A stretch of DNA of 49,721 nucleotides, counting the filler, from Jimgerdemannia flammicorona (lineage: Eukaryota), in assembly GCA_003990765.1 (NCBI GenBank). It is 2 parts of 2 records of this genome, joined end to end, with 100 filler letters (N's around TTAATTAATTAA, not from the genome) between each part and the next. Parts side by side here need not be neighbours in the genome. Positions count along the whole stretch, not along the records: positions 24,920 to 49,721 come from RBNJ01000923.1; 1 more part is not named here. One strand, written 5' to 3'. The stretch's first letter is position 1. Every line of letters starts with the position of its first letter. Below the pieces are notes generated by a model. The model ran no database searches. It had not been told where the DNA came from and saw only the letters and a list, made by a program, of their open reading frames with translations. Made by a program: the position numbers and the translations under genes. Below are positions 11,909 to 49,721 of this stretch, piece by piece.

Positions 11909-12420
11909 TATAGGAGGGGATACAATGAGAGCTAGCAGAGGACCAGAAGGACTAGCAAGAGGGCCAAAGTCTGAGCTATAGTTAAAGGAGAAGAAAATGG
12001 AAAGAAGGTGAGATATAAAGAAGATGAGAAATAAGAACAAATAAAGAATAGAACAGAAATTGTATCTGTTGTTTATTACTATACAAAAGTACAGTCCTTA
12101 TATATAAATACAAAGTTTCAAAAAGGAATAATGCACCATAACATAGAGATAACTAAATTAAAAATTTTATATTATATGAAGATAAGGGGGGGCCAATCTC
12201 AGAGTAAGTATAAAAATAAAAAATAAACAAATTCAAATTGAGATTAAAAATCATTTGCAGATCCTGGAGGGGTGAGCATAAGTAAGGAATGAGGTCAAGT
12301 AGAGTAAGCTACAGTGAGCCTAAGATAAAGTCAAGGGGTCAAAGATAGCAAAGGAGAGCAGAGTAAAGCCTGAGACCTCAGAGTGAGTATGAGACCCCAG
12401 AGGGGACCAGAATGTTTTTT
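11909..12420. repeat. Pseudo-LTR copy 2
   Basis: Direct repeat of 8242-8757. Confidence 0.88.
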
Positions 12421-19190: not shown

Positions 19191-19705
19191 TGAGCCAAAG
19201 GATTGATCAGCGCCTCCAGACATTGGTCCTCAGCTCCTTCCAAGCCCTACCTGTTCCTCTACCCCAATTCGGCCAAGCCAATGGAAGCCCCCTTCAAAGG
19301 ATCCAAGCTCATCAAGAAAATCTCACCTTGGCCAGACGCCTACTACAAGTCCACCAACTGCAGGCCTATTATGCAATCGGTGAACAGTTACAGAACCTCC
19401 CAGCCCCAGAACAAACCTATATCAGAAATACTACAGGTCTGATCAGAAGAGACACTACTGCTGCAGACAGACTATACACCATTTATAAACGAAATGTCAC
19501 AGCCCTGACACAGGCACAATTCTCCCTGAATGATATTCAAGGAATGAACCCTGTTACTTATCTGAGCATCATCAACTCTGTCGAAATCCTATTCCCTGAA
19601 GAAGAAGAAGAGCCCCTAGAATGGAGTAACCCCAGTACAGACAATGAAGATGATGGAACAGGTATAGATGCAGAAGCAGCCTATGCTTATTGGGATGATG
19701 ACTGA
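19190..19705 (+). CDS. Intact 171-aa accessory ORF3 of family A, unknown function
   Basis: ATG-to-stop ORF between integrase and PPT; helical core with QLQAYYAIG and an acidic tail; homologous to ORFs in families C and D. Confidence 0.8.
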   Translation: MSQRIDQRLQTLVLSSFQALPVPLPQFGQANGSPLQRIQAHQENLTLARRLLQVHQLQAYYAIGEQLQNLPAPEQTYIRNTTGLIRRDTTAADRLYTIYKRNVTALTQAQFSLNDIQGMNPVTYLSIINSVEILFPEEEEEPLEWSNPSTDNEDDGTGIDAEAAYAYWDDD

Positions 19706-22639: not shown

Positions 22640-23057
22640 AGAAGTTGTACTCAATTTCATATGGGTCAACCTCAAGGCCCAGATCTCTCAAGTACAGTCA
22701 GGAGTCATTGGTTTAAACCTTCAAGCAGTACAACAAGTCACTATTCCTGCACATGAAAGAAGACTCATTCCAACTGGCCTTTCAGTTGAAATCCCCAAGG
22801 AATATTATGCAAGAATTGCACTAAGATCTGGCCTCAGTTTCAAGCACTCATTGGATATTGGTGCTGGAGTCATTGATCCTGACTTCTGAGATGAAATACA
22901 AGTCCTGCTAGTTAACTACAAGAACCAACCATATACCATCAATGAAGGTGACAGAATTGCACAGCTCATTCTGGAGTAAGCCACCCTACCAGTCATCAAA
23001 GAAGTCACCAAGCTGTCTTCAACCAAGTGAGATCAGAAAGGCTTTGGCAGTACTGAC
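22640..23057 (+). pseudogene. dut: dUTPase domain, family B (between CCHC knuckle and protease)
   Basis: LIPTGLSVEIP, RIALRSGL, AGVIDPDF, GDRIAQLI, KGFGSTD. Confidence 0.92.
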
Positions 23058-24819
23058 AAAGTTGCAAGCATAGCCAAGAACTGAGCCAATTCAATGCTCA
23101 TTTTCAAAGATCTAGTCAAGGGACAAGAGCTAGATGTTCTTATAGACAGTGGAGCTATTGAAAACTTCATCAATAAGAACCTCATTAATAAGCTCAAGAT
23201 TCTCACCAAACTAGCTAGCAAGAATGGTGGAGTTGTTACTGCAGACAGTACCATCTTACCAATTGACTCAATTGCTGCTAAACTCCCTCTCAAGATCCAG
23301 AAGTACTGGGAATGTTTAGATTTCAAAGTAGTACCACTAGGAGACCATGATCTGATCCTAGACAAACCCTGGCTTATATGACATAACCCTCAGATTGATT
23401 GGATCAAGAATGAAGTCACCTTGATTTAGGATGGAGCCAATATTACCATCAAGCCAGACAAGACTCAGACAAGAACCCCAATTGCTACCCTTTCAGCAAT
23501 TCAGTTCAAGAAGACCCTCAAGAAAGCTACCTGTGCCTTTGTGGTACTGATCCGACCAAAGAAAGAAGACAAGAAGCTATTAATTAGTAAAAGCATCAAA
23601 TTACTGCTAAACAAGTACAAAGATGTCTTCTCAGACAAACTACCTGGTCTACTACCTTCAAGAGACCATGACTATGAAATCAAGTTGGTATCTGATACAG
23701 CTATACCTAAGAAGAAAATGTACCACATATCCCTACTTAAAATTGAAGCAGTCAAGAAAGAACTCAATGAACTCATTGAGCAAGGAGCCATTTAGCCAAG
23801 CAAGTCACCCTTTGGCTCCCCAGTCCTATTTGTCAAGAAAAAGGATGATACTCTGCAAATGTACATAGACTACCAAGCACTCAACAAGATTACAGTCAAG
23901 AACCATTATCTGCTACTACTTATAGATCAAATCTTTGATACTCTCAAAAATGCAAAGTACTTCACCAAGATTGATCTCACCTCTGGGTATTACCAAATTC
24001 GAATCAAGTCAGAAGACATACCCAAGACTGCCTTCATGATACTCTTCAGACTCTATGAATTCCTAGTTATGGCCTTTGGTCTCACCAATATACCAGTAAC
24101 CTTTCAAGATCTCATGCAAACTGTCTTTAAGGATCAGCTCTATATCTTTGTACTTGTATATATTAATGATATCCTGATCTTCAGTAGCACTGAAGAAGAA
24201 CACCTCAAGCATATTAAACAAGTCCTCAAGATCCTCTGTGAGAACAAGCTCTACATATATTTAGTAAGTAATTCATCCAAATGCAACACAGATAACATTG
24301 CGATATTCTTTATCCCCTAAAAATCAGCCCAACCATGGAAGAACTGCAAGTTACTATATCACCAAACACTATTATAGTACGTGCATTCCTACGTCCGTAA
24401 ATTTCACATGAGTCGATGAGAGTTTCCGGGTGTCAGGCACACCAATTTGGGCTTACACTCAATCGTCTTCATACCAGGTTTCACTCCCTGTTTTGTACAC
24501 CTTGTGTATGTCAAGTTATGCGGGAATCCTCTGAGTGGCTTGCTCTAGATGTAAACGCCATCACTGGTGGCGTAAACAATCTTGCGTCATCAGAAAAATT
24601 TCCGGAATGCGATTTTACACCAGTGGCAGTTAATTAATAGAGGGTACGGGTTATCGGAGAAGGAAGACGGAGATTTAACAACTTTGTCGGCACCGCTGAT
24701 GGTGGGTGATGTCCCAAAAATGGCAAACTCATATTCGAGGCCACGTTGGCCAAGGCCGAGTAATACAACTGAAGCTTGAATGGGAACAAGTCGCTCTCTT
24801 TTTTTTTTTTTTTTTTTTT

Positions 24820-24919: not shown

Positions 24920-26103
24920 TTTATTTTACAGACTCAGAGTTCTGTAGATTTTATTAAAAGAGAACCTAGACTATATAGGTCAAAACCCTCCCTCACTACC
25001 TACCAGACATTACTCTTCCATTAACCTAGGCTACTAAATTGTCCTATAGTCCCACTATTCCTACTATGTATATCAGATATACCAACTCTCACTATATAGA
25101 CTAGACTTATCTGTTTATCAGAGCTAGATCATTTTGACTACATGTGAGAGCATACCTATATATTAGATCTAGCAATATTGAGACTGAATAAGGAATAGTT
25201 CTCTGAACTCCAAACAAAGGCTTGAGGCAAAGAAAAACCCCCCAACTAGCCAACAGAAGACAGAATAGATTCAGAGCAGATAAGTAAAAAACTTATATAT
25301 AGGACTCTCTCAAAAGGACTGATACATGAGCTAAGGCTTGAAAAAGTCCCACTCCCACTCCCTGAGCCTACAGGCCTCAATTATAATACTGTATCAGCTC
25401 CTGGTTCTAATCAGATACTGCTAAATAAGAGAGATCTCACTCTCCAAGCCTGTGGGCCTCAATTGTATTACTATGTCAGCTCCCAGTTCCAGTTAGATAT
25501 AGCCAGGATACTGGTCTCTGCACTACCCCACTCTCTACCAGCCAATCAAAAGGCCCTACTGAGATAATACTTACTCTAACCCTGATGACCCCTCAGCCTA
25601 ATACTCTACTGGTCTATCATTATTACTTTTCTGCCTATCTGTAATAGCCATCTTCTCTCTCATCCTAACTCTATCTGAAAAGTAATTACCTATGCTAGAA
25701 CTATGCTCACTAGAAAGCTCACCAAAGCATAGAGGGCCCCACTATAGGTACTAAGGACCTGCAGGTAACCTATACTAGTACTTGATGCCCAAGGTTGACT
25801 GACTCTATATATAGTCTGTGATATACCAGATAATATCTTGTTGATGATAACAAAAGGAATAAGGTGCCACACTAAAACAGATATACTCCAGATATAGTCA
25901 AAGATACTAGAAATATTGAAAAAGTAAAGAAGACACCAATCTGACACTGATAAAAGGGCAACTCATCACTATTATCTCTCTCCTATTATGCTCTTACAAG
26001 AACAGCAAACTAATCTAAGATAGAGAGGATAATAATAGGAGAAAGGAGACTTGGAAGGTCACCTACCAAATCTTATAACCAGTAAGATAGCAGAGAAAGG
26101 AGA
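24920..26103 (-). mobile_element. Non-coding poly(A) retroposon, copy 2 (more mutated)
   Basis: Colinear with copy 1 from ACAGACTC to AGCAGAGAAAG; abuts the family C integrase end. Confidence 0.85.
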
Positions 26104-29100
26104 ATCATGAAGCTTCTACTATATTCTGATATATATATTAGAACTTTGTCTCCTATCTTGATAATCTCTAGAGACTTGTGAACTTTTTCTATATTATTCT
26201 ATTATAGTGCCTATATCTTGGTTATATAATTCTCAGGCTTTTTTCTGATTTAGTATAGTCTCTGAATCTCTATATCCACACATTTCCATATAATATTACT
26301 ATTAGATAACAGAGTTCTTTGAAAACTTTCTTCTCTAAATAAGATTTCTTAAGAGATAAAATGAGTACTTTGTGATTGAATATCCTGAAGAGCAGATAAT
26401 ACTATTAGCAGATAGTAATCCCAATTTTCATAGTTATCACAGATCTTAGTAATAACATTTTTGAGAGTCTTATTGATTCTTTCTACTTGTCTATTTTCTT
26501 GAGAGTGATAGGCTATAGTCTGAATATACTAAATCTTGTACTTCTTGCAGAGAATCTTAAAGAACTGGTTTACAAATTCTATTTCTCTATTTGTGATTAC
26601 TTGCAATGGGGTCTTGAATTGGCAGATGATTTTTTTATAAAAGAAATTGATAATTAACTATATATTGACTCCTTTGAGAGATTCTGCCTATATCTATTTC
26701 ATAAAAGGTCTACAATGATAATGATGTATCAGTTACCAGTCAAAGTCAAAAGTAGAGAACTGATTACATCTATTACTATATAGGCAAAGGATATTAGTTC
26801 TATGTATACTAATTCTGGAGTCTGATTTCATTGATCTTATTTCTGTTTTTAGTATTTATCACAGATCTTAACAAATTGTCTGACATCTTTCTCTATTCCT
26901 GGCCACTACATTATTCTTCTTGCTTTTTTATAAATATTTATTTCTCCTAAATAGCCAAGTTCATATATTGATTTTATTGCTTACTTCTTCTTATATTTAG
27001 ATATAACTAGTAGCTTTCCTTTCTTCAATGTTTCTCTATTGATTTTGAATTGTTTCTATATTCTGTTGATAATTATTTATATTTATTCTTCCAGATATTG
27101 GAGTATATTTTGCTATCTCAGATAGGTGATAATTCTATAGTAAAGCTCCTTATTCATTGTTGATTTATTGGTTGAAGATTCTTCAGAATATCTGTAAGAG
27201 GACATCTGTATTAGCATTGATTCTTCTAGAGCAGTATATAATAGTTGTCATAGGTCTGTAACTTCATAATCCATCTGATATAGATTTCTTTGGATTGTCT
27301 AGTAGTTAGTAGCTAAGTGAGAGCTGAGTGGTCTGTCTGAATGGTGAAGTATTTTCCAGTAAGGTAGTAGTGGAACTTTTCTATAGCTCAGATGACTACA
27401 AGATATTCTAATATATAGAATTCATATTCCTTTTTAGCTCCTTGGATTCCTTAGCTAAGATATATAATAATATATTCTACTTTGTCTTTCTTCTGAGCCA
27501 GGACTGCTCTTAGTCCTTATACATATACTTATGTTTATCTATAGGATAAATTCTTGAGTCCAATCAGATCTTCTGAGAATAGATGCCTGAGTCAGTCTGA
27601 TCTTGAGCTCATCATGTACTTTTTGTTGCCTGCCAGTCTATTGAAACTTAATATTCTTCTTGTTGAGTTTATAGATTGAGTCTATAATATTGGAGAATCC
27701 TTTAATAAATCTATAGTAGTATGAGATAAGTCCCATGAAGGCTTGAGCTTCAGTAACAGTGGTGGGCCTTAGATATACTACTACTACTTGAATTTTGAGA
27801 GGGTCTATGTGTGTTCTATCTTAGTTGATAATATGGCCAAAATAGGAGATCTCAATTTCTGTGAACTTGTACTTCTTGGGCTTAATGTATAGACTATACT
27901 TCCTTAGCTTCTCTATTATCTATTAGATGTACTGCAGATATTCTTCAGCTGTTTTATTATAGATAATAATATCATCCATATAAACCATTATCTATCTTTC
28001 TATATTATAGTAGAAGATTTTATTCATTATTCATTAAAAGCTTACTAATATATTATATATTCTGAATAGTATTTTCAGATAGACATAGGTTCTATCTGAA
28101 GTGATAAAGGCTGACTTCTCACTTACTGCTTCTATGAGACTAATTTGATAGAATCCCAAGTATAAATCCAAAGTACTGTAATTCTATACTTTATCTCTCA
28201 GATTACAAGAATATCACTGATGAGGAGCAGTAGTTAGTAATCTTTTTTGATAGTCAGATTAAGCTTCCTGTAATCAGTACAGAGTTTTGAACAAATTCTC
28301 CTGATTTGCTTTCTTTTTTTGGAGCCAGTACAACTAGTGAAGCCCAAGAACTATTGACTTCTTTGATGATACTAGCTTCTTCCATCTGCTTGATTTCTTC
28401 TCTGAGCCATTTATGATAAACTGGTGGAATTGATCTTGCTTTTTGATAAATTGGTTCAGTATTCCTTATATCTATATCATAGTAGTAATGTGGTGACTTT
28501 CTTTTAATATTCTAGAGTATTTTCTTGAGTTCCTTCTTGAGTGAGAATTTATTTCTAATAGTATAGCTATACTTGTTTGTAGTTTCCTCTTTTTTGTGGT
28601 CCAGTTCAGTGATCTTAGTACTAGCAAATACTTCTTTTCTTATAGATCTGAATCCCTTTCTTCCTCTCTCTATTTCTTCTAACTTCTTAACTTCTATAAT
28701 CTTTGGCTGAAGAACTGAGAAGATTAATATCTATACTAGTTGGTCCTTCTTCTTAATTAGAAATGAAATCATAGGGTCATGATTCTTAACAATAAGTAGT
28801 AATTCTCTAATATAATCTGAATTAATGACTTCTCCTTTAATAGTAATCTCACTCTTGATCAGACTACTTCTTGTCTTGAGGATTCTGATATTGTCTTTTA
28901 GAATAGTCATCTCTAGACCAGTTATAAGTAGGGTAGTTGTCTGGGACTCAAGTACAGTTTCTTTTACTATAGTGATATCCATTCCAGCTATATTCTCTGA
29001 TTTGTATTCTGGTAGAACTACATTAGGGTGGATTTTTCAAATCTTGACCTTGATTTCTTCTTCATCATCACTATCCTCCAGAAGGGCTAGTGGTTTGTCA

Positions 29101-31664
29101 TCCTCTTTCTCCTCCTTCTCTTCTCTTATTTGTTTCTCAAGAGCCTTTTATCTTCTTTTATAGTAGATCTTCTTGATTATACTAGTATATTGATAGCAAT
29201 TATTGATATACTCTATATAGTATATCTTGATTCTATAGAGACAGACTCCTTATAATACATATTCTTCAATAATCCTCTTACACCATTCTTCTTTACTTAT
29301 CCATTAAACTTTCTTCTTCTTTTTTTAAGTAGTCATCATATAAGCTTCTTTTTGCTTACTTTCTTCTTTCTTCATTTTAGGAAGTACTTCTTTGTTGATA
29401 TTGATGGGAATCTACATCTTCTGTCCTCAGTAGATAATCTGCATCTTCTAGACATTTAGATAAATTATTATCCTAGCTTTATAAAGCCATTAGTTGCTGA
29501 TAAGAATATTATAGTTGATTATATTAGTTTAAATGATGTCTACTGAGATAGTTGCTCCTCCAAACTTGATAGAGATATCTCAGATCTTTTCTAGAGATAT
29601 GGTCTTATTCTATCTACTGTAACAAATATCAACTTGGTTGCTTCTTCAATCTCCCAGTCTAGATAGCCTACTGCTTTCTTGCTGAGGAGGCATTTTTCTG
29701 CTCTAGTATCAATGATGGCCTCAAAGATTCTACCTTTGATTTAATAGATTGTATAGGCAGAGATCTTATAATTGTCTTTACTTTCTTCTCCTAAGTCTTC
29801 TTGAACATTGTTGATCTCAGTTATCTTCCAACCTTGCTCCTTAGTTGTCTTGGTAAGTTCATATCTTATTTTCTATCTGAATGTGAGAATTTCTGCTAGC
29901 TGGCCAAAGGTTGTATTGACCTTTTGTTGACTAAGGTCCTTGAAGATATCATACTTGAAGGTCTTGGTTTTGCAAAGCTTTTTTTTCTTTTTTCCTTTGC
30001 TGGCTAGAACTGGAGTAGTTTCTTAGATAATATCTTAAACTACTTGCTCAAGCTTTATATCTTGATCTATTTCTTCAGCTTAGCTTTCTGTAGTAGTTTC
30101 CATCTGTTTCTCTACTGGGTTTTTTTTGGGTCTCTCTGATGGTCTCTTGTATGGTTTCTTATAAATATCCTTCTTAATAGTCTGTATAGGGTAGGCCTCT
30201 CATTCTTCTTCATCAGATTCTCCAATTTCTTCAAAGATAATAGTATTGGTCTGTTCTTTATTCTAAGTAGTATTACATAACTATATCTTGTACTTAGTTT
30301 CACTTATGCATTTATATGAATAATGGTCTTCTTCTCTACAAGTATAGCAGATACCTCTCTTCTTATCTGAGGTATTAGCAACTTCTGAACTAGATAATAA
30401 TCTCTTTCTCTAATTTTCTTTATTATATCTCCTAAGTGAACAGTTATTTCAGCAAACTTCTTAGCTAGTTCCTTCATGGGGTCACTGTTTCTTTACTGCT
30501 CTATAGCTCTTAATTGAGGTATATTTCAATTGATTACTATGGTAGAGATTATTCTAGTTACCTTAGGTGCTTCAATTCTAACTCCAGTAACTCTTTCTAT
30601 TGTAAAGTCTTGTAGATATCTGGCTATCTAGTATTACTGAACATAGGTGACCTTTTATACTAGATCTAAGACTACTAGTGATGAGCAGATGATCATAACT
30701 ATCTCTGAGTAGACTCTCTTTATAAAGATTGTCTCAGTTACTTGATCTCAGATAGCAGTATCATAGTCTATAAGAATTATCTAATATTGAATTCTGGTAT
30801 AGAATATATTTGGATCCTTGTTCATTTCTTAGTATATTATATTGAGCTGATCCTTTAGGGCTTGCTTGATCTTATCTATATAGTAAGTAGCTCTAAGTCA
30901 GACCTTCTGTGCTATCAGTACAGTATTGTCATCATTTCTATATAAATTGCAGCTGTAAATACTACTCTTGCTAGATCTCAGAGCCTGAAGAGTATAAGAA
31001 CTACTTGCTATCTTGCTGTCAGAGTTCTTATAGTAGCATATTATTCAAAATCATCAATGAAGGTAATGATTGATTTATCTGAAGTATATCTATGGAATAC
31101 TAGTGATCTTATATCTATCTTGTTTAGATATCATGATTTGATTTATATAGTTATTGATATGGTAGTAGTTATTCATTATTTAGCTTAAAAGTGAGAGATT
31201 TATCTTAAATCACCAACTAATAGATACTAAGTTGTAATATAGTAGATATATAACTATATAAGTATGTTAGATTTCTATATCTTAAAAACTTAATTTTCTT
31301 TGACTCTGCAGAGTCCTCAAGATATAAGGGTAGATAAGTTCAAAGTATATCTATCTATAGACTTATTAGTTCTCTTACTTTCTCTTTGCTTTGAACTATT
31401 TCAATCTGAGGTTTATTCACTCTAAATACTGAGAATATTTATATAAGTTTGCTAGCTATAAAGTGGCTAAGTTATAACTATATTTCCTGTGAGTTACTTT
31501 TCATAAGGATTAAGTCTTAACATCTGTTAAATCTTTGATAATTATTAAAATTTAACATTTGTAAAATCTCAATATTTGTAAAACTTTAATATTTATCAAA
31601 ACTTTAATATTTGTGAAATAACTATTTCTCTGATTCATATTTCTAATTTAGATTAACTATCACA
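26104..31664 (-). mobile_element. Ty3/Gypsy family C, copy 1 (heavily mutated; 3' end missing)
   Basis: Reverse complement of 32318-37770; LTR 31233-31664; YMDD at ~27971-27982; dUTPase relic in ORF 28731-28982. Confidence 0.9.
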
Positions 31665-35245: not shown

Positions 35246-38131
35246 AGTATTTGTCAATATCAAGATTATAGAACTAGATTACAAGAAGGAGGAAACTACA
35301 AATAAGCATAGCTACACTATCAGAAATGAATTCCTACTCAAGAAAGAACTTAAGAAGATACTCTGTAAATTTAAAAATATTAAGAGAAAGACTCCACACT
35401 ACTATTATGATATAGATATAGGAGATACCAAATCAATCTATCAAAAAGTAAGACCAATTCTGCCAGCCTATCACAAATAGCTTAGAGAAGAAATCAAGCA
35501 GATAGAAGAAGCTGGTATCATTAAAGAAGTAAGTAGTTCTTGGGCTTCACTAGTCATATTGACTTCTAAAAAAGAAAGCAAACTAGAAGAATTTACTCCA
35601 AGGCTCTATACCAATTACAGGAAGCTCAATCTGGCTACAAAGAAGAATTACCAACTACTGCCCCTTATCAGTGACATTCTTATAACTCTGAGAGATAAAG
35701 TACAATACTACAGTACCTTGGATTTATATATAAGATTCTACCAAATTGGTCTCACTGAAGCAGTAAGTAAAAAATCAGCCTTCATTACTCCAGATAGAAC
35801 CTATGTCTATCTATAAATAATATTTAGAATATACAATATACTAGCAAGCTTTCAGTAAATGATAAACAAAATCTTTTACTATAATATAGAAAGATGGATA
35901 ATAGTTTATATAGATAATATTATCATCTGTAGTAAGATAGTCAAAGAACATCTGCAGCATATCTAGCAGATGATGAAAAGGCTAAAAAAGCATAGTTTAT
36001 ATATCAAGTCCAAGAAGTGTAAGTTTGTAGAAATTGAGATCTCCTATCTTGATCACATCATTAACTGAGATAGAATACATATAGACCTACTCAAGATCTA
36101 AACAGTAGCAGTATATCCAAGGCCCACCACTATCACTGAAGTCTAAGCCTTCATGAGACTTACCTCATACTACTGTAGATTTATCAGAGAATTCTCTAAT
36201 ATTGCAGGCCCAATCTATAAACTCAACAAAAAAAATATCAAGTTCTAATAAACTAATAAACAATAGAAAGTATTTGATGAGCTCAAGATTAGACTAACCT
36301 AAGCACCTATCCTTAGAAGACCTAATTGGACTCAAGAATTCATCCTGTAGACAGATATAAGTACTCAAGAACTAGGAGCTATCCTGGCTCAAAAGAAAGA
36401 TAAAGTAGAATATATCATTATATATCTTAGCCAAGGAATCTGAGGAGCTGAAAAGGAGTATGAATTCTATAAGTTAGAATGTCTTGTAGTTATCTGGGCT
36501 ATAGAGAAGTTTTACTACTATCTTGCAGAAAGATACTTCACTATTCAGACAGACTACTTCACTCTTACTTAGCTGCTAACCACTGAATAACCTAAAGGAA
36601 TTTATACTAGATGGATTATGAAGTTGTAAGCCTATGATATAACTATTATATACTGCTCTGAAAGAACTAATATTAATATAAATACTCTCTTACAGATATT
36701 TTAAAGGACTCTCAACCAATAAATCAATTATGAATATAGAACTCTACTATAGAATTATCACCTATCTGAGACAGCAAAATATGTCTCAATATCTAGAAGA
36801 ATGAATACAAATAATTATCAATAGAATATAAAAACAATTTAAGATCAATAGAGAAATACTAAAGAAAGAAAAGCTACTAGTTATACCTGAATATAAGAAG
36901 GAGCAAGCAATGAAATCAATATATGAACTCAGCTATCTAGAAGAAACAAATACCTATAATAAAACAAGAAGAACAATGTGGTAGTCAGAAATAGAGAAAG
37001 ACATTCAAGACCTGTAATAAATATCAGAAACAGAAACAAGACCAGCAAAATCAGACCTTAGGATCAGTATATATAGAACTAGTACTCTTTGTATACATTA
37101 TAATAGATGTAATTAGCCCTCTACTCTTGACTTTGACTGACAACTAATATATCATTATTATTGTAGACCTTTTTATAAAATAGATAGAGATAGAATCTCT
37201 CAAAGAAACCAATGCACAGTTAATCACCAATTTCTTTTATAAAGAAATCATCTGCTGATTCAAGATCTCAGTATAAGTAACTACAGATAGAGGAATAGAA
37301 TTTATAAACCAGTTCTTCAAGATTCTCTACAAGAAGTACAAGATCCAGTATATTTGGACTACAGCCTATCACTCTCAGAGAAATGAATAAGCAGAAAGAA
37401 CAAACAAGACTCTTAAGAATATCATCACTAAGATCTGTAATAACTATAAAAACTAGGAACACTATCAGCTAATAGTATTATCTGCTCTTCAGGATATTCA
37501 ATTACCAAGTACCTATTTTATCTCTCAAGAGATGCTGTTCAGAGAAGAAAGTTCTCAAGGAATCTTATTATCTAATAGAGATACTGTATGAAAACATATA
37601 GATATAAAGATATGGAGACTATACTAAATCAGAAAAAAGGCTGAGGATTATATAATCAAAGTACAGATACTATAACAGAATAATATAGAAAAGACTCACA
37701 AGCCTCTGGAGATTATTAGGATAGGAGACAAAGTCCTAGTATATCAGAATATGGTAGAAGCTTCATGGTTATGAAAACTGAGATCTAAGTAGGAAGGACC
37801 TTACCTTGTGTAAGATATAAAAGGAATTACCTTTTGGCTATAAAAACTCTCAGATATAATCATCTCCACTATCATTTACTAAAACTGACTTAAGAAGTAT
37901 CATGACTAGTCAATGAAATATAGCCATAGCCCTCAAGATTACTGGTACTATACAATAAGTCATAGAAAGACAATAGTATACTATCAAGCCACTCATGATA
38001 GAGAAATTCTTCAACAGCATCCAAAGTATAGTACAGATATATCTGTCATAAATTTCATACTTCAAGATCTACCAGAATTAGACCGAGCTTCAAGAATACT
38101 TTAAATTAGGATAGCTACTGAATTCACAGCC

Positions 38132-40201
38132 TGTAAGTGCACAACCTCCAAGCCACTGAAATTACATGTCACCCTCTGAACAAGCTACTTAAATTACACG
38201 CGACCTCTGAACAAATCTGGAAATCACCTGCTTGATCACAAAGCTGAGTCAAACCGAAGTCACAGCATACAAAGCTGAGTCAATATGAAGTCATGGAACA
38301 CAAGATTTACACAAACAGAATCTTACCAATCAGGACCAAATGTATATACCGAGCACCGAGATGCGTCGAATCAGAGAATCAAAACAAACAACAACTATAA
38401 CTTCCAAACACACAAACATGATCACTGAGATCTACAACTATATCTGCATGGACATTTGGAATGCCATTGTCAACCGAGCCACACCCCCTCTGCCCCTCAT
38501 GAATATCCATAGCCTGGCACCCCTCTACTTCATGGAAGCCTGATGGAACGCCCTGAACATGCTTAGCGAGGCCCACCGAATCAGACAAATCTCAAGCTAC
38601 TACCAGATCAGCCACCTCCTGGAAGACATGGTCGAACACTACCATGATATAGACATTACCCAGATGTCTCAACACCAGAAGCTCATCGCCCGCAAACATC
38701 GAGAACTCTTCTACAAGTACAGTACCTTTATTCCCCACCTCTGAGTCACTACCAGTGAAATGGTTGCTACCCTGTCCTATGGCCAAATCAATGACATGAT
38801 ATAAGAACTCAACCACAAGTGCCTTGAATACATCTAGACCACAGACAGAACCTTTCCGTACCCTGATGACTATATCCTGCAAATGCCTCAAGTCAGATAT
38901 GCCATGAAGGATATCTACGATATAATCCACTTCGACGAAGATGAAGCAGAAGACAATGATTCCTCTGACGCCAACATGACCTCTAGCCAAGGATCTCTGC
39001 CAACCCTGATCACACTGCCAAACTTGCCGATGAACTTGCAACAGTTCATAACTACATACGAGACTTATTGGGACAATGACCACTGACATGAATACAAACC
39101 TGTGTTCACTCCTGATTACTTCAACTACAATGAAGAGACCAGAGAACACAACCTGTACCTCCAGACAACTCTTGAGATTGAACCAACCACTCCACCACCT
39201 GAGTATGAGTGATATGAACCACAGCCACCAGCTTACTATAATCCTGCAACTCATAGTGCTGTAACCTATAGAAGGTATGCAAACAGTGAATCCGATGAAA
39301 GTGAAGACAATACACCCATCCTTCACCCACCAACACCTTATCCAGCCTACGAGACAGACGATGCTATCCTGTGGGATGGAGATGAAGTTCCAATGTACTA
39401 TTACCTCAGCAAATAAGGAGAAGTAATCCGCGAACCATTATTCCTAGATAACTACTTCATCAGAGATGATGCAATCAATGGTGATGTCATCGAGGACTAC
39501 CCAGACAGTGTCTAAACCCATAAATAACCTAGCAGTCATAGTATAGTTAGATTAGCCTTGTACAACGTGACTGTAAACTAACTCAGCTGTCAGACGATCT
39601 CTTGACATATCAGATCACACTTGTACTATGTGACTGCATTCTGACTCAGCAAAGCATTTAGTGCTACATCCATATCTAGCATAGTCCAGATAGCCCCTCA
39701 CTAGTATAAATACCCCCTCCCCCAGACCTCAGAATCTTAGACTGGAACAGACTCAAACACACAAGAACATTCCTGAATACTTCCCCATAATACCCCTTCA
39801 CACAACTACTCCTAGTATAGCAATATCATGAATAGCGAATAAACCTATTTGATAACCTACAAATCACTCTTAAGTAAACCCACTCCCTGTTAGGTCCCAC
39901 TCCTAACTCTGTCACAAAATTTCCTAATTGGGTATTGTCTGCAGTGATATACCAATTCAACTAAGCTGGTCTTAGTTTCTTGAACTTCCTGAAATATGGA
40001 AAATCCTGAACATCCAGAACTAGTCCAAAAAGGGACTTTGGTTGAGACATCAATCTGATCTTGAAATCAATAAGCATAGTGGATATACTCTATACGAAAT
40101 TGATCTTAACCATAAAAAAATAGTCTTCCAGAATATCCAGAACTTCCAGAAAACCCTTCCAGAACTACGTAACAGTTACTCTAAAAAGTAACCCTCTTAC
40201 A
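38132..40201 (+). repeat. 5' LTR of family D (2070 bp)
   Basis: Direct repeat of 46720-48791; TATAAA 39705-39710, AATAAA 39838-39843. Confidence 0.96.
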
Positions 40202-40204: not shown

Positions 40205-40216
40205 TGGTAGCAGCAG
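40205..40216 (+). promoter_or_regulatory. PBS, initiator tRNA-Met type (family D)
   Basis: TGGTAGCAGCAG 3 nt after the LTR end. Confidence 0.75.
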
Positions 40217-42229
40217 TTTACAATCCAATTCCGCTTCAAGACACTTCCTCACCTCACTACAAACCCTTCTGAGAATTCCTACAAGTTGGTATAAAGCCCA
40301 ACCTCTGAACTGGAATTTATCCTGAACCATCTGACAATCTAGAGAGAATTGAACCTGACGTACAAGGACAATTTGACCTCCACACCTGCAACAAGTGGGA
40401 CAAACTTCATTCAAAGAAAGAAATACTCCAGTTAAATCAGCAAATAGGCGAAACCCTATTCACTGAACTCCTTGCACTACACCCAGCAAGTCAAGACAAA
40501 GAAGGTCTTATTGAAGCCTTCTTTACTCTTCTCAATAAGAGTTTTGTCAGCTCCACAAATCCGAGCAACCTAGGACAACCAGCAGCAGTCTTTCTAGCCT
40601 TAGTTTCTCATGAAGCCCAAGCCTCTGTAGCCAAGTGGCTCAACTCTACCGACTTTCACTGCACCAGGACCAAGACTGCCTTATACTACCGATTCCAGAA
40701 CAGCAAGGCCCGCCATATCCTTAAAGAAGAAGCAAGAGAAACCCTTCATCAACTACCTGACCCTGAACCTGAAGCAGGCCCTGCTACAGCCCTACCTGAA
40801 TCTGAAACCAACACTGAACCTGAACTTGACTTTGAATTAAGTCCATCTGAAATCAGATATACAACTGATTCTGTCTACTTTGACACCGAGCAAACCCAAT
40901 TACACGGGGACCAAACCAAAGAAGAGGAGGAGTATCTTACCAAATTCAATCCCGGATACACTACTGAAGGAGACACACGTCCATCAGGACAGAATACACC
41001 TATATAGCAACAAACAGCTATCTATCAAGCCCTCACTCCAGACCCACAACTACTACTCCAGCAGCTTACATAGACCCAAAGAACTCCATTACACTCTGCA
41101 CCAGTACCTCAAGTAGTACCAGTAACACTACTACTAGCAGTCCAACTGCCTCCAGCAATCAACATGGTGAACCAACAGATTCTTGATCTCACAGCCCAAG
41201 TAGCTATAATGGCAGCAACTATCACTGCCTTAGCTAAACAGACCCGACCTACCAAAAATCTAAGCCTACCTACCTTCAATGGCACTGCACAAGAAGTCCA
41301 AAGCTTTATTAGTGTAGTTGACACCAACTTCAAAGCCAATCAATGGACTAATGAGCAAGTTGCTGACCATATTCTGACAAACAATCAAGACCACACCCTG
41401 GAACAACTCTTTGCTACCACTACAGCCTATGTCTGCCGAGTTGTCACATTCTTCCGAGGACCTGCCGAAGAATGGTGGTGAACCCTTCCTGAAAAACCCC
41501 TCACATGGGATACCTGACCTATAGTAGTTGCTCAGAATGCAGCAAACAATGCCCCAGGATACAGAGCCCATCCTGCAGCCCCTGGACTCAAACAACTCAT
41601 GATTGCTCAATATCGCAGCAAAATAATAATTGCCGAATCTCGAGTAAAACTCCACAACCTCAAATTTGATATACATGGCAAGGAAGAATTCGAAACCTTC
41701 TGTACAAAACTCAAGTCACTCCTGAACACTGTTGGCCTAGGATACATTGCCAATGATGAAGCACGAAATGGTACAAGAGCAGACCACTTATTTGATGCCC
41801 TGCCTGAATGGCTTACTAGAAAAATCTGAGAACAAGGCCGCCCAGTTAGTTGTAATCACCAACAATGGTGCCTGGTAAGAATCAAGACCATGGTTAAGCG
41901 AATCCTAACAGCTGGACCAATTCTGCTCTGAAGACAATTTAAACAAGGAAAGGACTTGGACCAAGAAAGAAGAACCCAAGCATGAAGCATTCCAAGCTCC
42001 CTCCACATCCACCTCTTGGACACCCAGAAATCATGAACCCACCCAGCCAAGTACCTTCAAGAAACTTACTGAAGGCGAAAGAAATGAACTTTGAAGAAGC
42101 AGAGCATGCTTCTATTGCCGAAAGACAGGATACATGGCCAGTGCCTGCCCTAACCGGAAACCCTGAACAGCAACCCAAGCAACTGTCACCACTCTGCACC
42201 ACCTCAACAACCTGACCACCAGAACACTA

Positions 42230-42635
42230 GACTTTGTCAAGTTAAGACAAACTGCTAAGGCCCCAACCAAAGAAAGTCAAAAAGCAGCTGGATATGACCT
42301 GTATACAGCCAAAGAAGCTACAGTTTCTAACCGAGAAGTCAAACAAGTCTATATAGGAATCAGTATCCAAATCCCTGAAGGACATGTTGGAAGAATATGC
42401 TGTCACAGCAGCCTAGCACTGAAAGGACTCTCAGTAGAAGGAGGAGTCATTGACAAAGATTATACAAGTGAAATCATTGTCCTCATTCGAAACCACAGTT
42501 GGACACCCTTCAAGATCCCTATTGGTTTCTGCATTGCCCAGATCCTATTCGAAAAAATCGAGTCAACCCTGACAGTCAAGGAAGTCCCTGAACTACTGCC
42601 CACCATCCAAGGATCCAAAGGATTTGGCTCATCAA
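42230..42635 (+). pseudogene. dut: dUTPase domain, family D (between CCHC knuckle and protease)
   Basis: AAGYDL, SSLALKG, GGVIDKDYTSEI, IAQI, GSKGFGSS; in frame with gag and protease. Confidence 0.93.
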
Positions 42636-45600
42636 ACAAGGCCCCAGCCCAACCTATCATGAGCAAAGAAGAACAATTCTACAAGAAGATAGAAGATGGA
42701 TATGTACCAAGTGGCCAATGCCCTCATAGTATTGGAATGTACTCTTCCCGAATGATTGATAATTGCTTCTCTTGTGTCAACGAACTGGCTCAAAGAAGAA
42801 CCAACAGAAGAAAGACTCCTACAACTGAAATCACCAGCATTGGATCAGACAAACTGCTCACCCTTAAGGCTTTTGTCAATGGAGCACCTGTCAAGATTAT
42901 GATAGACAGTGGTGCCTCAGGCAACTTCATCAATGAAGAGACAGCCAACAGACTCAAGGTCTTCACCTCTCCAGTACAGCAAACTCAAGCAGTTGTCACA
43001 GCTGATGGAACCTCACATGTCATCAGCAAAGAAGTCCGCAATCTACTCTTCCGAATTGGTGACTACCAAGTACATATTACCCTCCAGATCGTACCACTCC
43101 CTGACAATGAAATCATCCTTGGGACTCCATGGTTAAAGCAAGAGAACCCCATGATTGATTGGGTAAACCATTCTCTGACCATCAAGAAAGGATGCCATAA
43201 CTTCAAACTACAAGGCAAAAAGGACTCACTCAACTCTGGTAACTCTGGACCAAAGATCACCCACATCAACAAGCTACAACTCAAGAAATTGGCCAAGAAA
43301 TACCCTCTCTTTGCCATCTCCATCCGACCATCCAAAGAAGAACCCGAGAACTCTGAAGAAGATTTTTCCAAAGTTGACAGCCATGTCAGACCACTACTCC
43401 AGAAATTCCAAGACATATTTCCAAAAAAGCTCCCGAAAGGCCTACCTCCCAAACAAGCAGTAGACCATGCAATCAAGACTATCCCAGATGCCAAACCAGC
43501 CTTCAAGTCAATCTACCACATGTCTCTGAGAGAAATCGATGTACTCAAGAAAGAAATCGACGAACTCCTAGAATAAGGATTCATCAGACCCAGTGTATCA
43601 CCCTATGGTGCACCCATCCTCTTTGTTGTTAAGAAAGGAGGAGACCTGCGAATGTGCATTGACTACTGAGATCTCAATGAACAGACCATCAAGAACTGTT
43701 GCCCACTATCGAGGATTGATGAAATATTCGATAGGCTCACCAACCCACAATTTATGAGCTCTTTTGACCTGTGAAATGGTTACTGGCAAATTGCCATGAA
43801 AGAAGAAGACATTTACAAGACAGCTTTCCAAACTCGCTATGGACACTTTGAGTTCCTGGTTATGCCCTTTGGCTTAACTAATGCTCCAGCAACCTTCCAG
43901 ACATTGATGAATATCATTCTGCATCCATACCTGGATAAATTTGTTGTTGTCTATATTGACGACATCCTAGTCTTCAGCAAAACCCTGGAGGAACATCTTG
44001 AACACCTTGAACTAGTACTACTGAAACTCCGAAAAAACCGACTCTTTGCAAAACTCAGCAAGTGCGAATTTCTTCTGAAAGAAATTCAATTCCTTGGACA
44101 CATTGTCACTCCAAATAGAATCAAAGTAGACCCTAGTAAAATCTCTGCAATCAAAGATTGGCCTAGACCAAAGAAGCTGAAAGACCTCCAGTCATTCCTA
44201 GGATTAGCAAACTATTACAGGCGATTTGTTGCCAACTTTGCTAAAATCGCTACCGCCCTCACCCAAATGACCAAGCACAGCAAGAAACAAGAACAACCTT
44301 GGACCATGAAACAAGAGAAAGACTTCAACAATCTTGTAAATTGGGGAAACGAACAAGATACTACCTTTCAAGTACTGAAAGATGCCCTGATAACCACTCC
44401 AGTACTTCAAGCGGCAAACCCTGCCCTACCATATGAAGTCACCACTGATGTCTCTGATCTAGCTCTTGGAGCAGTGCTCATGCAAGAAGAACACCCTGTG
44501 GCCTATCACTCCCATAAGTTCAATGATGCCAAAATCAACTATGCAACTCATGAGAAGGAAATGCTAGCCATCGTAGATACTCTGATCAAATGGCGACCAT
44601 ATCTAGAAGAAGTATACTTCACTGTATTGACCGACCACAAGTCATTAGTCAACATCAAGGCACAGGCTACCCTTTCCTGAAAGCAAGCTAGATAGATAAA
44701 AGTCCTCACCAACTTTGACTACGAAATCCAATACTGCCCTGGCAAGGAAAATATTGTTGCTGATGCAATCTCCAGACCACCAATCGAAGAGGTTATCCAA
44801 ACTCTGACCTTGGTTACCAACACTATCATGGAACAAATCATTGCAGCATGTGTTGATAATAAAGAAGCTCAAGCACTCCAAGAAATCCTGAACAATGGTG
44901 ATACTGACAAGCATACCCGGTACAATCAATACCAACTTAAGGACAATGCTATCTACTACAAGGACAGATTGTATGTTCCAAACAACTGAGACCTCTGAAG
45001 GACCATCCTATTCGAATGTCATGATGCCCCTACAGCTGGATATTTAGGATTTGATAAATGTTATAAAGTTATCTCTCAAAACTTCTATTGGCCCCGCATA
45101 GCAGATCAGCTCAAAACCTACATCACTTTCTGTAATGCCTGCCAACGAAACAAGTCCTCAACACTAGCAAAACCTGGCTTACTTCACCCTATCCCAGTAC
45201 CATCCGCAAATTGGGAACAAATCTCTATGGACTTCATTATACAACTACCCCAAACCAAGAATGGAAAAGATACAATTGTTGTCTTTGTGGACTATCTCAG
45301 CAAACAAGCCCACTTTGTACCTACTACCACTACTGCAACAGCACCAGATATAGCCACACTCTTGTTTGACAATATCTTTCGCTATCATGGTCTTCCTAAG
45401 ATCATTATTAGTGACCAAGATCTGAAGTTCACCAGCCATTTTTGGAAAGCCCTCTATGCACACCTTGGAACGAAACTTGCACTATCCACAGCCTTTCACC
45501 CTGAAACTGATGGCCAAACCGAAAGAATGAACTGAACTCTGGAACAAATGCTAAGGAACTATGTCTCCTACAGACAAGATGATTGGCATGAACATCTCAC

Positions 45601-46124
45601 CACAGTTGAGTTTGCCTACAACAATAGCAAGCAAGCCTCTCTTAGAATGACCCCATTCTTCGCCAACACTGGACAAAATCCAAACACCCCATTGACACTT
45701 ATCTGAACCACTGAAGAACTCTCCACAGTCGAAGCTATTGAAGAATTCTTACTCCAAATGTGCAATTTAAGCCAGATTGCTATTGAGAATTTATCGTGAG
45801 CTCAGGAACAACAATCACAGTATGTTAACCAACATCACCGAGAAGAAACTTTTGATATTGGAGAAAAAGTCCTACTAGACATCAGAGGATACCGAGTTGA
45901 CAACCTCAAGCACAGACTATCTACTAAGCTGAACAGCAAGTTCATTGGACCATTTGAAGTCATTGCACAAGTCTCTCCAATCTCCTACAAACTGGCACTA
46001 CCAGACACCATTAAGATTCACCCAGTCTTTAATGTTCAATGTCTCAAGCAATACAATGAGAATGATGATGAGCTATTTCCAAACCGGACCACCAAACCAC
46101 CTGCACCTATCATTATTAATAACC

Positions 46125-46294
46125 AAGAAGAGTATGAAGTTGAACAAATCCTCAACAAATGTGGCAACAAGAACCATCCTGAGTACCTTGTCAAATGGAA
46201 AGGTTACCTGATCCATAATGCAACCTGGGAACCCAAGACCAATCTCCAGAATGCTACCGACCTAGTTCAGAAATATGATTCCTTGAACAACTAG
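46125..46294 (+). other. Chromodomain at the integrase C-terminus
   Basis: EEYEVEQILNK...EYLVKWKGY..NATWEPKTNL. Confidence 0.92.
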
Positions 46295-46719
46295 AGCCAA
46301 ATACTCTGCACCTATCCATACATACTATATATTACCCTTCTGAACATTATAACTATCACAAACCAAGTCAAGAACTCAGCAAAATAAGATAAGAATACCG
46401 AATCTCTGGAAAAATAGCAAAACTGAAAGCAAGCCTATTCTCTCTGTACCACTGGTGGGAAATAAGACATAGACATTTAAGAAGATTCCTTAGAGGAAAT
46501 TCTCCAGCAGTGAATGACGTCAGAATCACTTCTGATGCATAGCATTGAACACATGACCCTTTAACATGTGAATCCAATGCATTAGGCAACTGTACCACGA
46601 GCATACCACTTTCTGAGAAAATGGACCTTACCAGACTTTTGACCTCCCAAATGGTATAACAACACTAGAACAAATTAGAAGGCCCCGATGAGGATGTTGA
46701 AAGCTAAGAAGGGGAGAGT

Positions 46720-48791
46720 TGTAAGCACACAACCTCCAAGCCACCGAAATTACATGTTACCCTCTGAACAAGCCACTGAAATCACATGTGACCTCTGAAC
46801 AAATCTGGAAATCACCTGCTTGATTATAAAGCTGAGTCAAACCGAAGTCACAGCACACAAAGCTGAGTCAATACGAAGTCATAGAACACAAGATTTACAT
46901 AAATGGAATCTTACCAATCAGGACCAAATGCATATATACCGAGCACTGAGATGCATCGAATCAGAGAACCAAAACAAATAATAACTACAACTTCCAAACA
47001 CACAAATATGACTACTGAGATCTACAACCATATCCACGTGGACATTTGGAATGCCATTGTCAACCGAGCCACATCTCCTCTGCCCCTCATGAATATCCAT
47101 AGCCTGGTACCCCTCTACTTCGTGGAAGCCCGATGGAATGCCCTGAACATGCTTAGCGAGGCCCACCGAATCAGACAAATCTCAAGCTACTATCAGATTG
47201 GCCGCCTCCTGGAAGACATGGTCGAACACCACCATAATACAGACATTACCCAGATGTCTCAACACCAGAAGCTCATCGCCTGCAAACATCGAGAACTCTT
47301 CTATGAGTACAGTACCTTTATTCCCTGCCTCCGAGTCACTACCAGCGAAATGGTTGCTACCCTGTCCTACGGCCAAATCAATGATATGATACAAGAACTC
47401 AACCACAAGTACCTCAAATACATCCAGACTACAGACAGAACCTTCCCACACCCTGATGACCATATCCTGCAAATGCCTCAAGTCAGATATGCCATGAAGG
47501 ACATCTACAATATAATCCACTTTGATGAAAATGAAGCAGAAGACAATGATCCCTCTGACACCAACATGACCTCTAGCCAAGGATCTCTGCCAACCCTGAT
47601 CACACCGCCAAACTTGCTAATAAACTTGCAACAATTCATAACTGCATACGAGACTTATTGGGACAATGACTACTGGTATGAATACAAACCCGCGTTCACC
47701 TCTGATTACTTCAACTACAATGAAGAGACCGAAGAACACAACCTGTACCTCCAGACAACCCTCGAGATTGAACCAACCACTCCACCACCTGAGTACGAGT
47801 GATATGAACCACAGCCGCCAGCTTACTACAATCCTGTAACTCATAGTGCTGTAACCTATAGAAGGTATGCAGATAGTGAATCTGATGAAAGCGAAGACAA
47901 TACACCCATCCTTCGCCCACCAACACCTTATCCAGCCTACAAGACAGACAATGCTATCCTGTGGGATAGAGACGAAGTTCCAATGTACTATTACCTCAGT
48001 GAACAAGGAGAAGTAATCTGCGAACTATTATTCCTAGACGACTACTTTATCAGAGATGATGCAATCAATGGTGATGTCATCGAGGACTACCCAGACAGCG
48101 CCTAAACCCATAAATAGCCTAGCAGTCATAGTATAGTTAGATTAGCCTTGTACAATGTGACTGTGAACTGACTCAGCAGTCAGACGATCTCTTGACATGT
48201 CAGATCACACTTGTACTACGTGACTGCATTCCGACTCAGCAAAGCATTTAGTGCTACATCCATATCTAGCATAGTCCAGATAGTCCCTCACTAGTATAAA
48301 TACCCCCTCCCCCAGACCTCAGAATCTCAGACTGGAACAGACTCGAACACACAAGAACATTCCTGAATACTTCCCCACAATACCCCTTCACACAACTACT
48401 CCTAGTATAGCAATATCATAAATAGCAAATAAACCTATTTGATAACCTACAAACCACTCTTAAGTAAACCCACTCCCTGTTAGGTCCCACTCCTAACCCT
48501 ATCACGAAATTTCCTAATTGGGTATTGTCTGTAGTGATACACCAATTCAACTAAGCTGGTCTTAGTTTCTTGAACTTCCTGAAATATGGAAAATCCTGAA
48601 CATCCAGAACTAGTCCAAAAAGAGACTTTGGTTGAGACATCAACCTGATCTTGAAATCAATAAGCGTAGAGGACGTACTCTATACAAAATTGATCGTGAC
48701 CATAAAAAAATAGTCTTCCAGAATATCCAGAACATCCAGAAAACCCTTCCAGAACTACGTAATGGTTATCCTAAAAAGTAACCCTCTTACA
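46720..48791 (+). repeat. 3' LTR of family D (2072 bp)
   Basis: Preceded by PPT AAGAAGGGGAGAG (46706-46718); TATAAA 48295-48300, AATAAA 48428-48433. Confidence 0.96.
46903..48105 (+). CDS. LTR(U3)-encoded accessory ORF of family D; 299 aa to TGA at 47802, then 100 more open codons
   Basis: Lies inside the LTR, upstream of the TATA box; a stop-interrupted duplicate is at ~38310-39515. ATG 46951 is shared by both LTRs and is the likelier start. Confidence 0.8.
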
Positions 48792-49721
48792 CAGCCAGTG
48801 ATGGGAAAAGAAGATTGGATCAGAGAGTATTAGCTCTTTCACACTCAGATTACTATTGTGAAATAAGTATATAAGTTATTTAAGGAGAATGAACCAGCCC
48901 TAGCTCACTTTTGAGAAGTAGTTTCAGGAGACTTTGCATAAGTCAGAAGATATTATTGGGAGAATATGATGATATAGATTGCATAGTATAAGAAGATACA
49001 GCTTATAGAGGCTTAAAAGTTTGAGTGAATAGGATATTTCAGAGATGAATCACTTATTCAGAAGAAAGTTGTCATGAATCAGAGGAATAGACATTTGATT
49101 ATAGCACAAATGTAGAAACTTTACATTCTACAGATGTAGAATCTTAATGATCATAGAGATTTCACAGATATAGAAAATCTATACTTATAGAAAATAACTC
49201 ACAGAAAACATAATCATAACTTAACTACCTTATAGCTAGCAAACTTGTATAAATATCTCCAATATCTAGAGTGAATAAACCTTAGATTGAAATAGTTTAA
49301 AGCAAAGAGAAAGCAAGAGAACTAGTAAGCCTGTGGGCAGATACACTTTGAACTCATCCACTCCTGTATCCTGAGAACTCTGTGGAGTTAAAGAAGATCA
49401 AGTTTTCAAGATACAGAAATCCAATGCACTTACACAGTATGCAGTGTATAAATAAAAAAAGGAAATTGTAACTTTGTATAAAAGAACTATAAAACATAGT
49501 TACAACGGAATTTTGCAAATATCTTTTCTTGTTTCTATATCAATCGTGGCGCAGCGTAGCAGTGTTGTCAACTCGATGCTGTCAAATTGTGTGATAGAAG
49601 CCATAAGCTAGCGGCCTGCGGACCTAACTATTGAACACATATTCGATGCATTGCGTATGTGCAAATTTCGAGATGCATGGCCGATCAAGGGAGTGAATTG
49701 CAGAGCGTCCAACGCAACACA

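Follow-up and report, generated by a model that had tools for sequence, protein, structure and literature searches.

Genes that lie inside a long terminal repeat (LTR) are known from a few retroviruses and have apparently not been described for LTR retrotransposons; a search of open-access text for open reading frames (ORFs) inside LTRs returned retroviral cases or off-topic uses only. In mouse mammary tumour virus (MMTV), sag is a complete sense-strand gene located in the U3 region of an unusually long LTR, 5′ of the LTR promoter, and it is duplicated in both LTRs. Foamy virus bel2/bet and tas, as well as nef of the human and simian immunodeficiency viruses (HIV/SIV), are 3′ accessory genes that run past the polypurine tract (PPT) into U3, and foamy viruses have an internal promoter and an acidic transactivator. 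The present analysis concerns a stretch of 49,721 nucleotides from Jimgerdemannia flammicorona (assembly GCA_003990765.1), referred to as the window, which consists of two parts joined end to end, positions 24,920 to 49,721 being from record RBNJ01000923.1. It contains a Ty3/Gypsy chromovirus, the main element, in whose LTR the remains of a coding sequence of about 384 codons were found. The predicted product is called here the LTR protein.

Like MMTV sag, the LTR gene of the main element is wholly contained in the LTR, lies 5′ of the candidate LTR promoter and is duplicated. It differs in that sag encodes a membrane glycoprotein of a vertebrate retrovirus, whereas the LTR protein has no membrane-like segment and belongs to a chromovirus. 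In the case of nef and the foamy virus bel genes, the overlap with U3 is only partial, while the gene in the window lies wholly 3′ of the PPT. No sequence relationship of the LTR protein to sag, nef or bet was found in Pfam (E 0.01) or among Protein Data Bank (PDB) sequences (E 1). Concerning retrotransposons, additional ORFs (aORFs, or ORF3) 3′ of pol are described in an excerpt of PMC7264820 as lineage-restricted, of unknown function and located in the internal region (the env-like ORFs of the plant elements Athila and SIRE, gene23 of Grande, and those of Retand and Botrytis Boty), and for fungal chromoviruses an "add. ORF" without known function is drawn in an excerpt of PMC2864245. As described in these excerpts, and with the position of the latter ORF excepted, the aORF or ORF3 of LTR retrotransposons is placed between pol and the 3′ LTR, while the gene in the window is inside the LTR.

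The main element is delimited by two direct repeats of 2070 and 2072 nt, the 5′ LTR at 38132-40201 (+) and the 3′ LTR at 46720-48791 (+), which were 93.0% identical over 2072 columns by self-BLAST. In both copies the LTR ends are TG...CA, with TGTAAG at the start and CTTACA at the finish, and the same 5 bp, CAGCC, flank the pair on the left (38127-38131, +) and on the right (48792-48796, +). A primer-binding-site-like sequence, TGGTAGCAGCAG (40205-40216, +), which we take to match the 3′ end of initiator tRNA-Met, adjoins the 5′ LTR (3 nt past its end), and the PPT, AAAGCTAAGAAGGGGAGAG (46700-46718, +), stops 1 nt short of the 3′ LTR. The order of Pfam domains along 42167-46291 fits protease, reverse transcriptase (RT), RNase H and integrase (PR-RT-RNaseH-IN), and a chromodomain (PF00385, E 1.1e-15) follows SH3_Tf2-1. 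With the LTR pair and target-site duplication of the Metaviridae, the main element is a Ty3/Gypsy chromovirus that has a dUTPase at the N-terminal end of Pol. The copy in the window is dead, with 10 in-frame stops in pol (42167-46291) and changes of frame in gag.

In the 3′ LTR, a sense frame of 400 codons extends from an ATG at 46903 to a TAA at 48103-48105 (46903-48105), interrupted in frame only once, by a TGA at 47800-47802 (+). Of the two LTRs, only the 3′ LTR has the ATG at 46903, the 5′ LTR reading ACA at this place, and each of the two triplets is one deamination step from ACG. The first ATG common to both LTRs is at 46951-46953, 232 nt into the LTR, and defines a gene of 384 codons (46951-48105, +), the stop of which is 686 nt short of the LTR end; the next shared ATG, at 47008, is the start of the protein relative P0003. 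The frame is located 3′ of the PPT and inside the LTR, as in the sag, nef and bel2 type of gene, and 5′ of two signals: the TATA box TATAAATA (48295-48302, +), a candidate genomic-RNA promoter conserved in the 5′ LTR, and AATAAA (48428-48433, +), a candidate polyadenylation signal at the end of R that is present in both LTRs. An earlier note on this DNA had claimed a protein gene of about 385-400 codons in the LTR, upstream of these two signals, and in size (384 codons from the shared ATG, 400 from 46903) and placement (the frame ends at 48105) the claim agrees with what was found. The same note had more than half of the LTR as one reading frame, duplicated in both LTRs. The proportion is right (58% of the LTR counting from 46903, 56% from 46951), but the frame is not open, the longest intact ORF being 46903-47802 with 299 codons; and a copy is indeed present in each LTR, but that of the 5′ LTR (38361-39515, +) is badly decayed, with five stop positions beyond the shared TGA and a 2-nt deletion at 38342, just upstream. 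Since the TGA at 47800-47802 is found in both LTRs, it was present already in the copy that inserted. The LTR gene copy of the window is, thus, a pseudogene.

The evidence for coding was evaluated against a null model of 2000 dinucleotide-preserving shuffles of the LTR. The base composition of the LTR strand (34% A, 27% C, 15.6% G and 22.8% T) is one that favours open frames. Even so, none of the 2000 shuffles reached the stop-free run of 299 codons (shuffle maximum 216) or the run of 400 codons that allows one stop (maximum 221). Within the limits of the gene, 17 and 31 stops interrupt the other two sense frames, and 5, 25 and 29 the three antisense frames. A codon model trained on the main element's own pol scored +0.16 bits per codon in the gene frame and -0.52 in both shifted sense frames, and every frame of the LTR tail (48106-48789) and of the pol-PPT spacer scored from -0.24 to -0.66. 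In the gene, G makes up 25%, 11% and 14% of codon positions 1, 2 and 3, respectively, an enrichment at position 1 as in pol, and the strand skew, A over T and C over G, is that of gag-pol. Together with the relatives described below, these results support that the frame represents the remains of a genuine, conserved coding sequence located in the LTR, 3′ of the PPT. An antisense frame is open for 281 codons in the 5′ LTR (38592-39437, -) and has 5 stops in the 3′ LTR; we take it to be a common side effect of a coding sense frame where the strand is T- and G-poor.

An exhaustive HMMER search of 1.84 billion representative proteins with the LTR protein gave three matches, of which two were true. 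P0001, of 247 amino acids and encoded in a 998-nt contig of the European Nucleotide Archive (ENA), matched with E 2e-100, and P0003, of 128 amino acids and encoded in a 1180-nt contig of the Joint Genome Institute (JGI), matched with E 3e-67 and 89% identity. Each of them is the sole member of its own 90% cluster, and searches restricted to proteins of near length and of shorter length recovered only P0001 and only P0003, respectively. The third match, P0004 (E 1.5e-5), was a repetitive, unrelated protein aligned in six short stretches, and was dropped. At the positions where soil metagenome contigs differ from the window, P0003 has the residues of nearly all these contigs (e.g. at 47036, 47039 and 47040), and it can therefore be considered a less decayed member of the main element's family. 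P0001 is more distant. It shows 66.7% identity and 82.5% positives to the window over 246 aligned residues, with two gaps of exactly 2 codons each; it reads Gln opposite the TGA at 47800-47802, and its end coincides with that of the window frame. A relative at about 66% identity that is open to the same stop argues for lasting constraint, and the strength of this argument was estimated by simulating neutral drift of the 250 matching codons to 66% protein identity, in 3000 trials per mutation spectrum. The trials that remained free of stops were 0.27% with uniform mutation, 0.80% with a transition:transversion ratio of 1:1 and 3.9% with 95% transitions, and these percentages are upper values, because indels, which were excluded from the simulation, would have lowered them. 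Simulated positives were 76-78% (standard deviation 2%) versus the 82.5% of P0001. So, the claim of the earlier note that this is a real protein gene is upheld by the shuffles, the codon model and the open relatives P0001 and P0003 as far as conserved remains of coding sequence are concerned, but not for the copy at hand, which is a pseudogene.

Scans of contig DNA gave no further relatives: none among 12 and 415 pattern matches in metagenome contigs with alignments A1 and A2, and none among 106 and 414 in viral contigs with alignments A2 and A3. In contigs of prokaryote genomes, one of 69 pattern matches passed, from an archaeal metagenome-assembled genome, with 32% identity over 65 residues at the seeded word; it was rejected as a chance match selected by the pattern.

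The predicted protein was characterized on the 400-residue reading from the ATG at 46903, to which the residue numbers given here refer. Residues 16-190 are near neutral, with an isoelectric point (pI) of 6.8, while residues 191-400 carry a net charge of about -34 and contain Tyr, Glu, Asp and Pro at 10-11% each. The maximum Kyte-Doolittle mean over 19 residues is 1.03 and the grand average of hydropathy (GRAVY) is -0.67, without any membrane-like segment; neither a signal peptide nor transmembrane segments, such as an env-like protein would have, were found in the LTR protein. We infer a helical N-terminal domain of about 175 residues followed by a strongly acidic, Tyr/Pro-rich C-terminal half. 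Our best guess is that the LTR protein would be a regulatory or adaptor protein, e.g. a transcriptional activator or an antagonist of chromatin or of silencing, rather than a structural or envelope protein.

A second Gypsy element of the window bears on the origin of the gene. Its RT-RNaseH-IN part is at 17218-19133, with the pol stop at 19131-19133; its RT is 37% identical to that of the main element, and no chromodomain was found in it. Its 3′ LTR starts at 19748 (TGTGACAAGCC), a position obtained by aligning it to the 5′ LTR of a third element on the minus strand, where unrelated AT-rich DNA borders the LTR start at 6070. An ORF3 of 171 codons (19190-19705, +) is found between the pol stop and the PPT/LTR start at 19748, i.e. 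this ORF3 occupies the place of an internal aORF, between pol and the PPT/3′ LTR, which the LTR gene of the main element does not. Seven relatives of ORF3 were found in metagenomes, with 60-82% identity in BLASTP alignments and the frame open, and four of the seven have 171-183 amino acids. In one relative, P0023, the frame continues upstream across the pol end, in a reading frame different from that of pol. ORF3 gave no Pfam match and no usable match in the ESM Atlas.

ORF3 and the LTR gene have in common their orientation, their place after pol and their encoding of a helical part followed by an acidic tail; they differ in length (171 versus 384 codons) and in that ORF3 is located before the PPT and outside the LTR. 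The two proteins share the same two-part build, which in ORF3 consists of an N-terminal part that is helical and basic (pI 9.9), followed by an acidic tail with a net charge of -16.5 in 46 residues. By BLASTP, ORF3 matched the N-terminal half of the LTR protein with 27% identity over 48 residues (E 1e-4), and hhalign gave E 0.004 over 50 columns (probability 9%) and E 0.015 over 140 columns (probability 3%). A profile of the ORF3 family scored 11.5 bits on residues 16-200 of the LTR protein, the maximum of 2000 shuffles being 11.2 (0/2000). In a MAFFT alignment the two families were 15-22% identical, and the similarity was collinear from the initiator Met. Homology of ORF3 and the LTR protein seems likely on this basis, although unproven. 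The idea of the earlier note that the LTR contains an ORF3-type gene gains from the weak collinear similarity and the shared build, but it is not helped by hhalign probabilities of only 3-9%.

The differences between the two LTRs show how they have decayed since insertion. They amount to 145, of which 138 are transitions, and were polarized as C-to-T or G-to-A changes. The fraction of sites hit per copy was 21-27% for CpG, 7-8% for CpA, 4-5% for CpC and 0.7% for CpT, a spectrum that fits decay of the methylation or deamination type and not classical, CpA-only repeat-induced point mutation (RIP). In the 5′ gene copy, the 47 inferred changes were 25 non-synonymous, 16 synonymous and 6 stop-creating, and in the 3′ copy there were 26, 18 and 0, respectively, as compared to expected fractions of 0.56, 0.36 and 0.075 in a sequence without constraint. 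The six stop-creating changes among 47 in the 5′ copy indicate that decay is fast when constraint is absent. The lack of private stops in the 3′ copy (0 versus 3.46 expected, P = 0.023) was read as chance, because the ratio of non-synonymous to synonymous changes is neutral.

Taken together, we consider it reasonably probable that the frame is a pseudogene derived from a real accessory gene of the chromovirus family, of some 384 codons and contained wholly in the LTR, in U3. If the genomic RNA starts after the TATA box at 48295, the gene would be in U3, only the 3′ copy would be part of the genomic RNA, and the 5′ copy would lie outside the transcript of the main promoter. Since reverse transcription places the U3 sequence of the RNA 3′ end at either end of the new DNA, each new insertion would have two gene copies and each solo LTR one. 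The idea of the earlier note that solo LTRs spread a complete copy remains a prediction. Expression would most likely come from a second promoter in the tandem repeats at the LTR 5′ end (46737-46891), which include two TGAGTCA sites; the resulting mRNA, about 1.5 kb long, would end at the AATAAA of the LTR itself, the alternative being a spliced or subgenomic RNA. We think that the second promoter is the most economical reading, and by analogy the internal promoter and acidic transactivator of foamy viruses are the model proposed for the LTR gene. A much bolder extension, for which we see only a slim chance, is that the LTR would be a self-contained cassette made of 5′-repeat promoter, 384-codon gene and polyadenylation signal, which originated by a shift of the LTR boundary over an ORF3 and which, with the two-promoter logic of foamy viruses, would allow every LTR or solo LTR to express the protein independently of gag-pol, which would act in trans to regulate the downstream promoter or host silencing.

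The gene probably descends from an ORF3 whose former place was between pol and the PPT, the 5′ boundary of the LTR having moved upstream by means of a new PPT. This is the route put forward in the earlier note, and the ORF3 of the second lineage lends it modest support. An insertion of the gene into an already existing U3 fits equally well, and the 5′ repeats would in that case be old enhancers stranded 1.4 kb from the TATA box. No relic PPT that could decide between both routes was found 3′ of the stop codon. If the homology to ORF3 is real, the boundary shift is favoured, because it needs no new DNA.

Several rival explanations have to be weighed. The gene could be real but located in R, with transcription starting at about 46850-46950, so that R would be about 1.5 kb long and the gene would be the first cistron of the genomic RNA, repeated at the RNA 3′ end. 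Plant Ogre elements, which carry an upstream ORF1, offer a likeness, and enhancer-like repeats with two TGAGTCA sites, kept in both LTRs, are indeed found immediately 5′ of the ATG, at a distance of 1.4 kb from the TATA box further downstream. On the other hand, the conserved TATAAATA about 130 nt before AATAAA is the canonical layout of a promoter and R, the AATAAA of the 5′ LTR would fall 1.5 kb into the RNA, before gag, and a first cistron of 384 codons would block scanning to gag; the TATAAAG at 46825 that might serve such a start is a change private to the 3′ LTR, and we know of no precedent for an R of 1.5 kb. So, location in R appears unlikely, albeit deserving of serious attention. It is also conceivable that the LTR captured part of a host gene, which gave rise to the frame, without any role for the element. 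This would account for the lack of similarity to any retroelement protein family in Pfam, and LTR retrotransposons pick up host sequences according to an excerpt of PMC7264820. Against it, no host-type homologue was found among the 1.84 billion representatives, the frame resembles the genes of the element itself in codon make-up and in strand skew, P0001, at about 66% identity, is open to the same stop, and a similar two-part ORF3 exists in another Gypsy lineage; we regard capture from the host as improbable.

The least credible of the alternatives, and one already largely refuted, is a chance opening in a T-poor and G-poor strand, or an antisense frame as the meaningful one. The composition of the sense strand (22.8% T, 15.6% G) and the 281 open antisense codons of the 5′ LTR would be compatible with it, but no shuffle in 2000 reached the observed length, the pol codon model fits this frame only, P0001 and P0003 provide independent matches to the sense frame at 66-89%, and the antisense frame is broken by 5 stops in the 3′ LTR.

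The reading as a pseudogenised U3 accessory gene has to face a number of points that weigh against it. An intact copy of the gene was not seen, the TGA being in both LTR copies, and the parent of the main insertion may have been defective already; moreover, both gene copies have been unconstrained since insertion, as expected of a fixed insertion. Only two protein relatives are at hand, from short contigs (998 and 1180 nt), the placement in an LTR is read in the element of the window alone, and P0001 and P0003 are subject to ascertainment bias, as gene callers record open frames only. The assignment to U3 depends on the position of the TATA box. The TATAAAG at 46825 is replaced by CACAAAG in the 5′ LTR, and therefore a TATA box common to both LTRs is lacking for the proposed upstream promoter. 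With respect to the protein, no Pfam family was found at E 0.01 and no PDB chain at E 1 or below (a separate query of PDB sequences with alignment A3 gave E 0.058 or weaker only), and the ESM Atlas contained no match, the best score being 0.85 with low shared features. The AlphaFold models A1 and A4 have mean confidence scores (pLDDT) of 31.9 and 44.1 and are unusable, but they are consistently helical at about residues 33-176. The guess of a regulator or adaptor has composition as its sole basis, i.e. a helical binding domain together with an acidic, aromatic-rich tail. Finally, the homology to ORF3 is statistically weak, with hhalign probabilities of 3-9% and a profile score just 0.3 bits over the best of 2000 shuffles.

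Concerning contig depths, run X17, the type of which was guessed as RNA, showed a summed depth of 3481.8 at 48322-48611, just 3′ of the TATA box, with 0-13.5 in the five bins that span the gene (46872-48321) and 365.5 in the bin that follows the peak. Contig depths cannot rank the parts of the LTR, and the X17 peak was not used as evidence of a start site. In run X1, the depth at 48032-48611 was about twofold that of the gene part, which was not used as evidence either.

The LTR contains three tandem repeats. At its 5′ end there is one of 32 nt × 2.1 (46737-46802, +), whose copy number varies, as joints in metagenome contigs skip 31-32 and 66 nt. It is followed by one of 31 nt × 2.1 (46828-46891, +), present in both LTRs and located 60-120 nt 5′ of the LTR gene ATG, with a TGAGTCA in each unit that presumably resembles a bZIP/AP-1/Gcn4 site. 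Just 3′ of the TATA box, a 10-nt repeat × 2.2 (48328-48349, +) shows a 10-nt deletion variant in other copies. Soil metagenome runs and two coded organisms contain parts of the main element, and contigs of X1 and X2 link 48789/48791 to 40202, which is the junction of LTR end and PBS of other copies.

In the internal part of the main element, the leader/gag region (40309-42160, +) shows frame changes and stops and has a CCHC knuckle near 42100; three pieces of it gave no Pfam match. A stretch of 232 stop-free codons without ATG (40309-41004, +), in the frame of gag and 5′ of recognisable gag, had no Pfam match and may be an N-terminal extension of gag or a further upstream ORF. In pol (42167-46294, +), Pfam identified dUTPase (PF00692, E 9e-31), aspartic protease (PF13975, E 4e-13), RT (PF00078, E 4e-27), RNase H (PF17919, E 1e-29), integrase zinc (PF17921, E 5e-16) and integrase core (PF00665, E 3e-8) domains, the Tf2-type SH3 (SH3_Tf2-1; PF24626, E 4e-18) and the chromodomain (PF00385, E 1e-15). 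The spacer from the pol stop to the PPT (46295-46699, +) is non-coding, with stops in all frames, and differs among copies, 217 and 487 nt of it being skipped in X2 and X3 contigs. The dUTPase domain is at 42254-42634, and the window contains dUTPase-like stretches in at least three more copies of Gypsy elements (475-878, -; 22647-23069, +; 28635-29012, -). Chromoviruses that carry a dUTPase are reported for the fungi Postia, Phanerochaete and Tuber in an excerpt of PMC2864245.

Other repeats were observed outside the main element. Just upstream of it, 26103-31601 and 37770-32426 are inverted copies, 78-80% identical, of a further Gypsy element, which is heavily mutated, AT-rich (about 31% GC) and about 5.5 kb long. 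A cluster of repeats of about 520 and about 340 nt, direct as well as inverted and with 79-82% identity, occurs at 8241-8759, 11908-12422 and 12424-13109, and it resembles the LTRs of a small nested element.

Retrotransposon LTRs are commonly taken as non-coding control regions, they are masked in annotation, and solo LTRs are counted as dead. If the LTR gene of the main element is what it seems, the length of an LTR would no longer be only regulatory padding, two gene copies would be contributed by each insertion and one by each solo LTR, and accessory genes in U3, so far typical of only a few retroviruses of vertebrates, would have had an independent origin in a chromovirus. The window, with an ORF3 before the PPT in one lineage and a possibly related gene after the PPT in another, would provide a natural comparison for the movement of LTR boundaries.

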